From Sphingomonadales bacterium (GTDB lineage: Bacteria; Pseudomonadota; Alphaproteobacteria; Sphingomonadales; Sphingomonadaceae): DNA of 64,000 bases. The position numbers and the translations under genes were made by a program. The stretch spans positions 5,441 through 69,440 of the forward strand of contig JAXDPD010000003.1 of NCBI GenBank assembly GCA_034668505.1. Direction: 5' to 3'. Position 1 is the first letter of the stretch; every line of letters begins with the position of its first letter. Below the pieces are notes generated by a model, which was given only the letters and a program-made list of their open reading frames with translations, had not been told where the DNA came from and did not search any database. Of the stretch, positions 19,807 through 22,342 are shown piece after piece.

Positions 19807-19829
19807 TCTGATTGCTCATGGTCTGCGGC

Positions 19830-20759
19830 TCATGTGGAGGCTCCCAGCCGAGCGCCTCCGCTGTCTGAAACATCTTGGTTGCGCTGCGCGAGCATCGCGT
19901 ATCGCATCCGCAGCGCTGGCGGGATAAGCGCGGGAATCGGATAACGTTCGACGAATTCGGTGTTCATCAGCTGCCCATAGGCGGTGCCGACCTGAACCAT
20001 CGTGAGCGCGTCGCGCGGCGCGTGCTGAAGGATGGTTTCGCCGACTTCGATTGCTTCCTGAAAGCGACGCTCGGAGATCAAAAACTCCACCACAATAGTC
20101 GCCATCAGAGCAACGACCTCGCGTCGGGTGAGGGTTCGCAGATAAAGGCCGCTTTCTACGGCCCGATCGGCCATGGGCATTTGCTGGCGATACCAAATCG
20201 TCCGTGCCGGATGCCCGCCGCTGGTAGCTTCTAGGTTCATCTCGCGCCCGAGCGGATCGATGTAGCGGACGAACACATGCAGCGGGGCGGTGGCGAGCGA
20301 CAGGTTCAAGCCCATCCGCTCGCCGACGAGCAGGAAGAGCATCGGCATCGACACGCAATTGCCGCGCCGGGTTGCGAGATACGTCGATATCAGCTTGTTG
20401 CGGACGTTCTGGCCAAGCGGGTCGGTTTGATCATAGCTTAGCGGCCGGTTGTCATTCCAGGCGCCGCCTTCATAAATCACGTTCCGCAGCGCAGCCAGCT
20501 TCGCAGCGTCAGTCGCACGAGGCCCCGCCAGTGCTGTCGCCTGAGCGGCCAGGCGCTCGATTTGAGCAAGGGTGGCGTCGGCATTTATCGACGGATCGAC
20601 GATGTGATCGAGGGCCAGTTTTGCATTCGCATAGTCGAGGCGATCATCAGGCGGAGAAAGCACCCGACGGGTCACATCAGGTGGGCTGGTGCTCACGTGA
20701 GCAAAAACATCCGCGTGCCAACACATGGCCGTCATTAAGAATACAAGGAGCCGCGCCAT
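19830..20759 (-). CDS. Exported transglutaminase-like (SirB1/Transglut_core2-type) protein, possible 3' frameshift
   Basis: Signal-like N-terminus; YLATRRGNCVSMP, APLHVFVRY, NLEATSGG (Cys-His-acid triad pattern); TPR-like C-terminus. Confidence 0.75.
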   Translation of the reverse strand: MARLLVFLMTAMCWHADVFAHVSTSPPDVTRRVLSPPDDRLDYANAKLALDHIVDPSINADATLAQIERLAAQATALAGPRATDAAKLAALRNVIYEGGAWNDNRPLSYDQTDPLGQNVRNKLISTYLATRRGNCVSMPMLFLLVGERMGLNLSLATAPLHVFVRYIDPLGREMNLEATSGGHPARTIWYRQQMPMADRAVESGLYLRTLTRREVVALMATIVVEFLISERRFQEAIEVGETILQHAPRDALTMVQVGTAYGQLMNTEFVERYPIPALIPPALRMRYAMLAQRNQDVSDSGGARLGAST

Positions 20760-20875
20760 CTCCAGAAAATGCTTCCAGTTGTTATATATTCAGTCCCCGT
20801 GATTATCTTGCAGCGCCCAACGGCAATACAGAGCGAGAGCCGTAGAGAGATTATAGAATTCGCCCTCGCGTCTCC

Positions 20876-21466
20876 TCATGAATCCGCCCCCTCACAGCCG
20901 GGTTGGCGCGGGTCCGCCAGCACGCCGACGCGGCCGCGAAGCCACATCGCGCCTAGCGGCAACCCCTGCTCCATGTCGCCGACGACGCTGTAGGCGAGCA
21001 TTCCCAGGCAACGGTCCACGTACATAAAGTGTTGGAGAGGGCCTCGGGTGGAATCATTCCCGCTAGCCGGCGCCTCGACTTCGACTATCGCCGCCCGGCA
21101 GTCGTTGAAGCAGCGCGTCACGCGGAAGCTGCTCCTGAGACACCGATAGCGATCGCCGCTCCGGATCGGCCGCCTGATCGCCAGCTCGACCGCGCTTTCG
21201 CGTGGTCCGATCAGGACGCATCGCACCCCATCTTCAGATTCGATGAGCTCAGCCCGGTGCGAGGGCCACAACCCGGGAAGGAGCGCATTAAGATCGCCAA
21301 AACGGGTTCCCTGTCTTGAAAAGACCAGCACGCTGCCAAGATCGGTGCTTATGTAGCGAATGTCCTGGGCCGGCTCGAACGTGGACATGGGCGCCGTCGG
21401 CGGCTGGGCGGCAGCGGGGCCGGCCAGGGCCAGCGCGATAACGGCCCAAACTCTCCCAATCAGCAA
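20876..21466 (-). CDS. Exported Cys-containing hypothetical protein, candidate immunity protein
   Basis: TTG start overlaps the upstream gene's stop by 7 nt; signal peptide MLIGRVWAVIALALAGPAAA|Q; six Cys. Confidence 0.65.
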   Translation of the reverse strand: MLIGRVWAVIALALAGPAAAQPPTAPMSTFEPAQDIRYISTDLGSVLVFSRQGTRFGDLNALLPGLWPSHRAELIESEDGVRCVLIGPRESAVELAIRRPIRSGDRYRCLRSSFRVTRCFNDCRAAIVEVEAPASGNDSTRGPLQHFMYVDRCLGMLAYSVVGDMEQGLPLGAMWLRGRVGVLADPRQPGCEGADS

Positions 21467-22191
21467 GGCCTCTCCCCCAGCAAGCAGGAGGCTGCGCCGT
21501 CATAATCGTCTTCGTGCGGAATCCGGCTCAACGGATAATTGCGAGTCTGCAGGCCACCTGTCCATTCCTGGTAGGTCCCGTGGATGCCGCCGTCATGGAC
21601 AATGTGTCGTTCGCGCACGTCAAGCGTCCTGTTGGTCACCAGTGTTTCATTGTCGTCGACGGCATGTGTCCGGTCGTTATAGACGCCGGGTGAAACCATG
21701 CGAAGAGAGGAGTTGTTCGCCACGGTACCCTCCACGTAGACAAACTTCCTGTCGACAAGCGATGCCAGCGATTGCGCGGCGGTGATGGTAAAGCCTCCCT
21801 TATCGCCCTGCTGGTCTGGAATCCTAGCTTCCCTCATCTGATTCCTCGCCAGCGTATTGGCTGCCGCGCTGTAGCGGGAGTTGAAATTCCGGAATCTGCC
21901 ATTTTGTTCGCGCTCGGTCGGCGCCCGCCTCTCCCACCCACCATTCTTGCGCTCACTCACAAAGTCCATGCGGCAGTGAAGTTCGGGCGCACCGCCTCGT
22001 TGCGTGCCAACCTGCGTGCAAGTGGTCCCGGTCGGATCGGCGCGATTCACCGGGTCATTCCCCACGTACGCATACAGATTGAATTGATCCTGATATCCGA
22101 CGGGATCGGCCTGCAGGAAGCGGGCCTGTGCGGGGACCGTCAAGCCCAGCAGCGTGACGGCGCTCAAGACATTGCGGGCCTTGGCGATCAT
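21460..22191 (-). CDS. Signal-peptide-fused mini-Rhs (Rhs core tail plus 188-aa C-terminal domain)
   Basis: GGAGGGG RBS before ATG 22191; [55 protein letters not shown] then unrelated C-terminal domain. Confidence 0.85.
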   Translation of the reverse strand: [243 protein letters not shown]

Positions 22192-22342
22192 GATCTCGAT
22201 CCCCCTCCAATAAAGGCGAAGGAGAGTGATCATCGATTTTGAATAAGAATCAAGGCATAATTCACGGAAACCGAAAAGTGTGGACAGTCACTGGGATCAG
22301 ATACTGTCCCATTGCGCCAACTCACACTGACGAGTTTCGGGG

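Follow-up and report, generated by a model that had tools for sequence, protein, structure and literature searches.

What does the end of an Rhs core do outside its shell? Rhs toxins are usually pictured as cargo sealed in a cocoon of YD repeats and fired by T6SS or Tc machines. In a 64,000-nucleotide stretch of a Sphingomonadales genome (assembly GCA_034668505.1, contig JAXDPD010000003.1, positions 5,441 to 69,440; hereafter the window), we find a three-gene cassette in which the cocoon is absent, yet the conserved tail of the core persists under strong protein-level selection, and a rare family of PF13369 enzymes accompanies this tail faithfully across phyla. Our best explanation, mechanism included, takes the cassette for one instance of a polymorphic toxin module that is Sec-dependent and cage-less ("Rhs-tail"), and we assign it a probability of about 0.6. 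We are highly confident in the architecture of this module, consisting of a short Rhs-tailed toxin (mini-Rhs, gene 1), gene 2 and gene 3, and in the linkage of its parts.

A signal peptide joined to the end of an Rhs core

All three genes are co-oriented and carry signal-peptide-like N-termini, as the original prediction stated; they lie on the minus strand. The signal peptides of all genes were called by a rule of thumb, from hydrophobicity and AxA rules only. Gene 1 (21460-22191, 243 residues) occupies most of an open reading frame spanning 21460..22233. Its real start is the ATG at 22191 (MIAKARN...), as indicated by a Shine-Dalgarno sequence, GGAGG, read directly at 22204-22208, 12 nt ahead of the ATG, and by the adoption of the same start in database clusters. 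The upstream intergenic region (22192..22342, minus strand) shows no consensus sigma-70 promoter.

The predicted signal peptide (residues 1-23; 22123..22191, minus strand) has a hydrophobic core and an AxA site, with predicted cleavage after AQA. Directly behind it comes the Rhs tail (residues 24-55; 22027..22122, minus strand), which contains D29 and D52 and is followed by a C-terminal domain (CT) of 188 residues. Against the NCBIfam model TIGR03696 (Rhs_assc_core), gene 1 covers only positions 40-75 of 76 (E 1e-11, 45.2 bits). No Pfam match at E<=1 to the YD-repeat and shell families PF05593 (RHS_repeat) and PF25023 was found in gene 1, and the 23 residues ahead of the tail are all signal peptide. 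The arrangement first described from the raw sequence, an AQA site immediately before RFLQ, no YD shell and a 188-residue domain, is thus what the profile searches return. In this genome, two full-length Rhs genes cover TIGR03696 positions 1-76 and have a tail in common with the mini-Rhs.

In a PDB sequence-profile search with gene 1, the tail alone was matched, not the CT; it aligns to the C-terminal, cleavage-site ends of solved Rhs, TcC (YenC2, TccC) and teneurin-like shells. The spacing between D29 and D52, the latter within DPTG, is 23 residues, which equals that of the TccC3 dyad (D651/D674). The catalytic residues of P. protegens RhsA, D1324 and D1346, are 22 apart (PMC8765631), and the proposed likeness to the Rhs/Tc-C aspartyl dyad is borne out.

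The junction between signal peptide and tail recurs. At least 53 of the 120 relatives listed join a signal peptide to the tail exactly at ..A|RFLQ, and the proteins with this junction carry many different CTs (P0051, 52, 54, 55, 58, 62, 64, 66, 70, 79, 83, 84, 87 and others). Among signal-peptide-type tails read from loci across phyla, an AxA site stands directly before R[FY] in 25 of 27. The search for proteins combining a signal peptide with an RHS-core motif therefore recovered more than fragments of full-length Rhs proteins. Modeled alone, the tail has a pLDDT below 50 and is predicted to be disordered. Its substitution rates (pN 0.18 versus pS 0.76, with pS saturated) indicate that it is under purifying selection at the protein level. 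With synonymous sites saturated and the protein sequence conserved, it is not DNA identity that is maintained in the tail. We reject a reading of gene 1 as an orphan Rhs fragment on the strength of the conserved signal peptide and junction, the gene's own Shine-Dalgarno sequence and this pattern of substitution; the ribosome-binding site and the precise junction were the two features on which the original prediction had rested the same argument. A chance origin of the cassette can likewise be dismissed because at least 53 database proteins share the junction and the neighborhood is found again across phyla.

A variable, putative toxin domain and its candidate immunity partner

The CT (residues 56-243; 21463..22026, minus strand) is a putative divergent metallopeptidase. 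It contains four conserved Cys and the motif H199-D-G-G-I-H204...E209...H226, and its AF2 model has a pLDDT above 90. There are 44 full-length homologues of gene 1 and its CT. Neither the single sequence nor all 44 members gave a Pfam match, and a fold search gave no PDB match (best E 1.4). The CT is nevertheless homologous, with an hhalign probability of 99.8%, to the HExxH-bearing CT of P0063 (HEGTH), and a relative at locus L010 has HEGIH, whereas the window's HDGGIH differs from the canonical HExxH.

The same CT also ends the YD-repeat proteins P0006, P0010, P0014, P0047 and P0050. Other CTs common to mini-Rhs and YD-repeat proteins are found in P0070~P0076, P0086/51~P0105, P0084~P0085, P0057~P0113 and P0054~P0117. 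Across 16 loci we counted 16 different CTs, in keeping with the variability that had been anticipated. The family thus combines a conserved N-terminal part, a hypervariable C-terminal toxin and CTs common to other delivery types, as polymorphic toxins do.

Gene 2 (20876..21466, minus strand; 196 residues, TTG start, signal-peptide-like N-terminus) has a 7-nt overlap with the stop of gene 1. It has no family match in Pfam or NCBIfam. Its homologues lie directly downstream of a gene-1-type CT in 7 of 7 loci (L005, L006/7, L008, L039, L040 and L041), and L039 holds two copies, the second a retained one that is 94% identical. From this placement, gene 2 is likely the exported cognate immunity protein of the gene 1 CT, as the overlap had suggested at the outset. 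The candidate immunity gene downstream co-varies with the CT, and orphan immunity-like genes are retained, which is again the polymorphic-toxin pattern.

The cassette sits in a GC-poor islet (19800..22600; GC 0.57-0.64 versus 0.68-0.76 in the flanks, from the composition profile), with the psp operon on one side and an acetyltransferase gene on the other. The same chromosomal site in relatives holds differing cassette content: L005 has a toxin (88%) and an immunity gene and lacks gene 3; L039 has a toxin (67%), an immunity gene (59%), the retained immunity gene (94%) and gene 3; and L062 has a different CT, a 74-residue immunity-like gene and an intact gene 3.

The T6SS markers VipB/TssC and PAAR were not found in the genome, which is 99.96% complete, and T6SS delivery of gene 1 was rejected on these absences. 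No outer-membrane export route, receptor-binding domain or translocation domain is visible for the module. An all-against-all BLAST of open reading frames at 19 loci revealed no third partner that is conserved within 6 kb on either side, an outer-membrane exporter for instance.

A constant PF13369 partner

Gene 3 (19830..20759, minus strand; 309 residues as it stands) is separated from gene 2 by an AT-richer spacer of 116 nt (20760..20875, minus strand) and encodes a predicted exported protein of the PF13369 family (Transglut_core2; 39.5 bits, Pfam cut-off 23.5). It scores 24.5 bits against the SirB1 equivalog NF008188, for which the cut-off is 391, and by these scores gene 3 is a distant relative of SirB1, not an orthologue. 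The AF2 model has a pLDDT of 90, and its best PDB fold match is menin. The Cys-His-acid triad named in the original prediction corresponds to C135 (codon 20355-20357), H161 (20277-20279) and E177 (20229-20231), all on the minus strand, and is invariant in 17 homologues from five phylum-level groups.

That description of gene 3 missed a frameshift at the 3' end. In tblastn searches with the gene 3 proteins of L062 and L049, the frame changes at ~19870, and the out-of-frame rest of the gene (19793..19870, minus strand; FQTAEALGWEPPHEP...) includes the family C-terminal motif FxxAEALGWEP at 19870..19838. A second copy of gene 3 in this genome, on contig C5, is intact; in the second cassette of the genome, the toxin has a premature stop. 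Also missed was how often relatives have a lost or broken gene 3 beside the window's CT family: L005 and L006 lack it, L008 has a remnant, and L039 and L040 have frameshifted copies. Gene 3 is therefore dispensable for keeping the toxin-immunity pair, or is supplied in trans.

Homologues of gene 3 are rare, being present in 7 of 401 genomes of the order. Counting loci with context and an undamaged copy, 6 of 6 in the order adjoin a signal-peptide mini-Rhs (G000 twice, G190, G231, G255 and G052); G118 and G187, at first suspected to be of the signal-peptide type, turned out to be ordinary Rhs fragments and were left out. Loci from other genomes, spanning Alpha-, Beta- and Gammaproteobacteria, Myxococcota and Bdellovibrionota, showed the same adjacency in 17 of 17 cases. 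Among the carriers that can be grown are Allosphingosinicella and Sphingomonas isolates, Luteimonas aquatica and a Chitinimonas sp. Starting instead from mini-Rhs genes with other CTs, we found a PF13369 gene ~0.5 kb downstream in 3 of 3 further cases (L068-L070), and natural fusion proteins exist (P0203, P0281 and P0233). At E<=1e-30, the PF13369 relatives number 443 cluster representatives. Adjacency in both directions, from gene 3 and from mini-Rhs, rules out a chance neighbor, and the co-occurrence with a Transglut_core2 gene proposed for this system is borne out. A role for gene 3 as a second immunity protein is ruled out, as it stays constant while CTs change. Trans-loading of the toxin into a full-length Rhs cage is unsupported as a general rule, since G255 has the module and no other Rhs-tail match.

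Divergence of the tail tracks divergence of gene 3 (rho 0.30, Mantel p 0.018) and divergence of the CT does not, although the correlation is no more than modest and is what joint inheritance by itself would yield. Overall, each genomic test named beforehand came out in favor of a cage-less polymorphic toxin module as a genomic architecture. The three-gene toxin cassette is widespread across bacteria, in at least five phylum-level groups, and apparently lacks an earlier description; literature searches found no published account of a mini-Rhs and PF13369 module.

Possible tail processing, alternatives and related systems

In the mechanism that we prefer, gene 1 would be exported by Sec, and signal peptidase would bare an N-terminus that starts exactly at R-F-L-Q of the 32-residue Rhs-core tail. 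This tail, disordered when alone, would serve as a conserved N-terminal tag ahead of a swappable toxin domain, which in the window may be disulfide-bonded and probably metallopeptidase-like, acting in the cell envelope. The gene 2 product would be the cognate periplasmic immunity protein, and the CT-immunity pair would be swapped through recombination, both among mini-Rhs loci and with full-length Rhs genes. Gene 3, the constant partner, would be an exported enzyme of the transglutaminase/papain fold, its Cys-His-Glu triad intact and its peptide-binding architecture like that of menin. Its cleft would bind the extended tail, and the enzyme would cut at or just after DPxG; homology to YenC2 would place the cut after T56. 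Such a cut would replace the aspartyl autoproteolysis that depends on the shell in true Rhs proteins, and the toxin would thereby be released or activated. A precedent is McjB, a transglutaminase-like leader peptidase (PMC10318531). We regard tail processing by a gene 3 protease as a tentative assignment, somewhat short of even odds. Equally provisional is its generalization, in which the last ~32 residues of the Rhs core are a portable N-terminal leader of Sec-exported toxins, and this leader is recognized, and cut or transferred, by a periplasmic cysteine enzyme of the PF13369 family that is dedicated to it and has a menin-like peptide cleft.

A cysteine protease would leave unexplained why every tail keeps both acids of the aspartyl dyad. 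They are present in 27 of 27 signal-peptide-type tails, even where the loop length is altered, and this speaks for a different role of gene 3, as a scaffold, chaperone or adaptor rather than a protease. Here gene 3 would hold the tail for self-cleavage by the Asp dyad, doing the job of the missing cocoon, or would escort the toxin to some outer-membrane exit or carrier, in a pairing like that of MafA and MafB. Menin, the nearest fold, binds peptides as a scaffold without catalysis; lipobox-like signals occur in some gene 3 homologues (ALGC in L060, IVGC in L058); and for the transglutaminase domains that are fused to Sec-type RHS toxins, a role in peptide binding or anchoring was put forward by Zhang et al. 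(2012). A pure scaffold is hard to reconcile with a triad invariant in 17 sequences from five phylum-level groups, however, and the escort version finds no conserved outer-membrane component nearby. We consider this role unlikely, albeit the strongest competitor to tail cleavage.

Less probable still is that gene 3 is a transglutaminase- or sortase-like acyl-transferase that cuts the tail and links the toxin covalently to a carrier or to a component of the envelope, so that it is displayed or delivered. Its fold and intact triad would suit such an activity, a cross-linking or anchoring option was part of the original prediction, and surface anchoring was raised by Zhang et al. (2012). Against it, neither Gln nor Lys of the tail is conserved across phyla, no acceptor protein is conserved in the neighborhood and PF13369 has no assigned function (PMC10318531). 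Classical transglutamination on a tail Gln was rejected on this pattern; the Q of RFLQ and that of YQDQ are confined to the sphingomonad subgroup.

Very improbable is a decaying remnant, in which gene 1 is an orphan Rhs tip behind a hydrophobic ORF start, kept as recombination DNA for full-length rhs, and gene 3 is a bystander near loss: the frameshifted gene 3, the premature stop in the second cassette's toxin, the loss of gene 3 in relatives and the full-length Rhs genes with the same tail would fit, but gene 1 is intact, has a Shine-Dalgarno sequence of its own and is represented by 44 full-length homologues that are under constraint, its signal peptide and junction are conserved, its tail is maintained as protein over saturated synonymous sites and gene 3 adjacency persists across phyla.

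The Rhs-tail toxin module can be set beside several known systems. With canonical YD-shell toxins of the Rhs, TcC and teneurin type (T6SS Rhs proteins such as P. protegens RhsA, the Tc-toxin component TcC, and WapA, which is Sec- and wall-associated), it shares the motif ...RFxxxDPxG...NLYxYxxNDPxxxxDPxG with acidic residues 22-23 apart, a break in homology and the beginning of the variable toxin right after DPxG, an adjacent immunity gene and an identical pool of CTs. Unlike them, it lacks YD repeats, cocoon and plug, retaining only core positions 40-75 of 76; its tail lies at the N-terminus of the mature protein, after a signal peptide; and it has no T6SS, PAAR or Tc context and instead a dedicated PF13369 partner that is missing from full-length Rhs loci.

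The Sec-type polymorphic toxins with an "inactive transglutaminase" and RHS repeats (PMC3482391) likewise bring together a signal peptide, a transglutaminase fold, an Rhs element and variable C-terminal toxins (Sec/"T2SS" class). In the toxins described by Zhang, Aravind et al. in 2012, the transglutaminase domain is fused ahead of a full RHS repeat array and has lost its catalytic residues (PMC3482391), whereas gene 3 is separate (rarely fused) and has Cys-His-Glu in 17 of 17 sequences, and the module has no repeats.

The MafA-MafB-MafI system of Neisseria (PMC4287609) follows a similar three-gene plan, in which an exported accessory protein stays constant, a toxin with a signal peptide joins a conserved N-terminal part to a variable CT, and an immunity gene completes the set. 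The likeness is in gene logic only, with no sequence relationship and no DUF1020 match in Pfam or NCBIfam; MafA is a lipoprotein of a different fold, and the conserved N-terminal part of our module is only 32 residues long and Rhs-derived. McjB (PF13471) and menin (PF05053) resemble gene 3 in pairing a transglutaminase/papain core with a peptide-recognition surface, and McjB takes the N-terminal leader off an antimicrobial precursor (PMC10318531). Gene 3 differs in belonging to PF13369, in being predicted periplasmic rather than cytoplasmic and in its would-be substrate, a folded toxin with a 32-residue tag; menin, unlike gene 3, lacks a catalytic Cys.

Because it is small, comprising three genes and a 32-residue tag, the module is directly testable. 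With it, polymorphic toxins would gain a new trafficking or processing class that brings along many uncharacterized toxin and immunity domains, and the PF13369 proteins of bacteria would acquire a testable substrate. If the leader reading is true, these cassettes represent a toxin maturation or delivery pathway not recognized before, independent of T6SS, Tc and CDI. Such a pathway would span at least five phylum-level groups and provide a first function for bacterial PF13369 proteins.

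A recurrent class of exported mini-Rhs proteins

The gene 1 open reading frame (21460..22233, minus strand) starts at the ATG at 22191, as in database clusters, with GGAGG 12 nt upstream, and encodes a product of 243 aa. A signal peptide (residues 1-23) with an AxA site at its end is followed directly by the 32-residue end of an Rhs core, here called the tail (residues 24-55), and by a C-terminal domain, CT (residues 56-243). Gene 1 has no match in Pfam; the NCBIfam model TIGR03696 (Rhs_assc_core) matches the tail, at model positions 40-75 of 76 only. The original prediction of a signal peptide joined to an Rhs tail with two Asp residues 23 apart is borne out, the aspartates being D29 and D52. 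Pseudomonas protegens RhsA uses D1324 and D1346 as its catalytic aspartates, and mutation of either blocks C-terminal autoproteolysis (PMC8765631). In the gene 1 family profile, the tail aligns with the extreme end of the solved YenC2, TccC, Rhs, and teneurin-like shells. Because YenC2 chain 4igl_B terminates one residue past the aligned Gly, the canonical cut in gene 1 would be after T56. In the structure model, the tail is disordered when modelled alone (pLDDT <50) and the CT is confident (pLDDT >90).

Short proteins of this type recur and are not only fragments of full-length Rhs. Among the 120 gene 1 relatives listed, a conservative rule assigns at least 53 to a class with a signal peptide followed by RFLQ and 43 to one with YD-core sequence upstream; about ten of the remaining class are also plainly of the signal-peptide type. 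The whole CT is common to about 45 of those listed. Many others, of 200-260 aa, have the signal peptide and tail in common and carry unrelated domains directly after DPxG, including Aspzincin_M35 (P0058), an alpha/beta hydrolase (P0064), and several HExxH domains. Some YD-repeat proteins end in the same CTs as mini-Rhs proteins (P0070 and P0076, P0086/P0051 and P0105, P0084 and P0085, P0057 and P0113, P0054 and P0117), and the window's CT is found on the YD-repeat proteins P0006, P0010, P0014, P0047, and P0050. The mini-Rhs architecture is thus a real, polymorphic class.

Across loci from several phyla, the AxA site lies directly before R[FY][ILV] in 25 of 27 signal-peptide-type tails, and all 27 keep both tail acids (D or E at position 6, and D in DxxG) despite a loop 8-12 residues longer in some. 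Synonymous sites are saturated (pS 0.76) and pN is 0.18 in the ten such tails with DNA; canonical Rhs tails of the same order have a dN/dS of about 0.09. Conservation of the tail therefore acts on the protein, not on the DNA. Three Rhizobiales loci (L052, L057, L064) have the tail variant RFISPD(T/D).DPT.PGVGTNRY.YS.NDPINKSD(P/S)NGH, with about 20 additional residues between the predicted signal-peptidase site and RF in two of the three.

Immunity linkage and cassette exchange

Gene 2 (20876..21466, minus strand) and gene 1 overlap by 7 nt at the gene 1 stop. The N-terminus of gene 2 resembles a signal peptide, and no Pfam or NCBIfam family matches. Gene 2 homologues lie directly downstream of window-type CTs in L005, L006/L007, L008, L039, L040, and L041, and they keep this position whether the carrier is a signal-peptide mini-Rhs or an orphan Rhs fragment (L041). 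Gene 2, placed as foreseen for a cognate immunity gene, thus behaves as a putative one. The relatives share a site between an acetyltransferase gene and psp genes and differ in cassette content. L005 has an 88% identical toxin and an 89% identical immunity gene and lacks gene 3; in L039/L051, gene 3 accompanies a toxin of 67% identity, an immunity gene of 59%, and a further, kept immunity gene of 94%; in L062, gene 3 is intact, the CT differs, and the immunity-like gene encodes a membrane protein of 74 aa. Displacement of cassettes with an orphan immunity gene left behind classically gives this pattern. The tandem paralogous immunity genes behind the toxin at L039:4722-6597 are evidence that the toxin was replaced and the older immunity gene retained.

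None of the 44 CT family members matches Pfam, and the CT matches no PDB fold. In hhalign, the CT aligns with P0063 at 99.8% probability, with HEGTH of P0063 opposite the window's HDGGIH, and a relative in L010 that is 40% identical to the CT has HEGIH. From these HExxH-type motifs, a divergent zincin-like peptidase is a reasonable guess for the putative activity. The exported gene 2 protein and four conserved cysteines in the CT suggest a target in the envelope.

A transglutaminase-like gene as constant partner

Gene 3 (19830..20759, minus strand) matches PF13369 (Transglut_core2) above cut-off and falls far under the cut-off of the SirB1 equivalog. Homologues occur in 7 of 401 genomes of the order. 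Gene 3 lies 1-2 kb from a signal-peptide mini-Rhs in the window's own genome (two loci), G190, G231, G255, and G052; in G183 the locus is interrupted by a contig end. The single in-order locus with gene 3 alone (L071, G120:C19:3357-4231) is a pseudogene with a frame break and a stop, on a 6.4-kb contig with no mini-Rhs.

The expected co-occurrence of the two genes also holds across phyla. Scanning one genome per species gave 17 gene 3 loci, from Allosphingosinicella, Kumtagia, Rhizobium, Chitinimonas, Luteimonas, Dyella, Noviluteimonas, Arenicellales, Pseudomonadales, Archangiaceae, Myxococcales, Oligoflexus, and Pseudobacteriovorax, and in all 17 a gene for a signal peptide plus tail (190-280 aa) lies at most about 2 kb away. 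The usual order is gene 3, directly after it the mini-Rhs gene, and then a small variable ORF. Conversely, each of three further mini-Rhs genes, picked only for the length of their contigs, is followed at about 0.5 kb by a PF13369 gene. No third gene is common to the module loci, and gene 3 is the constant partner. Gene 3 divergence tracks tail divergence (rho 0.30, Mantel p 0.018) and does not track CT divergence (rho 0.11, p 0.18; 16 loci compared, with 16 different CTs, as variable as predicted). At E<=1e-30, the gene 3 family comprises 443 cluster representatives; among the best 150 of these are three apparent fusions (P0203, P0281, P0233), which join the gene 3 domain to a tail and a toxin domain, in some cases with an internal signal peptide as well, and which may be true fusions or products of gene-calling read-through.

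The proposed Cys-His-acid triad is invariant in 17 sequences (C135, H161, E177), as is N175. From the N-terminus, the AF2 model of gene 3 (pLDDT 90) runs through a helical bundle, a transglutaminase core, and helical repeats at the C-terminus; menin is its best match in the PDB (probability 1.0, TM about 0.5). Menin is a transglutaminase-like scaffold whose central cleft binds extended peptides. According to PMC10318531, PF13369 has no known function; the related McjB acts as leader peptidase on the precursor of an antimicrobial. In a gammaproteobacterial subgroup, the proteins begin with an additional domain of about 110-130 residues (L053:90-1406, L055:2067-3380; P0140, P0141, P0145, P0156, P0166). 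Lipobox-like signal peptides occur in homologues from Archangiaceae (L060, ..VALGC) and a 'delta' MAG (L058, ..IVGC), and certain lineages may therefore have a lipoprotein as partner, like MafA.

Processing of the tail and place among toxin systems

After Sec export, the tail would serve as an N-terminal tag bound by the gene 3 protein, which would most likely cleave it near DPxG. Alternatively, gene 3 could be a scaffold or adaptor, with the tail self-cleaved by its Asp dyad. Retention of this dyad in the tails favours the scaffold, and invariance of the triad favours a catalytic gene 3. Acyl transfer or anchoring by gene 3 is another alternative.

That the module is merely decaying would be a further, unlikely explanation, to be set beside both the protein-level constraint on the tail and several lesions. 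Near its 3' end (19793-19880, minus strand), the window's gene 3 contains a frameshift: the conserved C-terminal motif FxxAEALGWEP, here FQTAEALGWEP, lies in another frame (19870..19838), and the ORF as read has the unrelated end ..DVSDSGGARLGAST. The frameshift may be genuine or may stem from the assembly. Gene 3 is repeatedly missing or damaged beside window-type CTs in relatives, indicating that it is dispensable for keeping the toxin-immunity pair or is supplied in trans. The three-gene stretch has a GC content of 0.57-0.64, against 0.68-0.76 in the flanks, and a second module (C5:27409-29547; L004, L049) lies in another GC-poor islet. Its toxin, with a CT of another family, is cut short by an in-frame stop at codon 194; next come an immunity-like gene for a multi-pass membrane protein of 149 aa and an intact gene 3 paralogue (54% identity) with a twin-arginine-like N-terminus (FSRRCIL).

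The T6SS markers TssC and PAAR are absent from this 99.96% complete genome. Its full-length Rhs genes on contig C19 (10721-15315, 16692-17678; L001, L002) have their own Sec-type signal peptides, and an exported YD-like protein of 645 aa is encoded ahead of one of them.

We found no description in the literature of a signal peptide fused to an Rhs tail with a PF13369 partner. Among the nearest published descriptions are the canonical Rhs/TcC toxins and the Sec-type toxins with an inactive transglutaminase and RHS repeats (Zhang et al. 2012); the likeness to MafA-MafB-MafI is one of gene logic only. The module has no repeats, no full core, and no T6SS or Tc delivery, which places it outside the Rhs family proper. 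We file it with the polymorphic toxin systems, as a variant.
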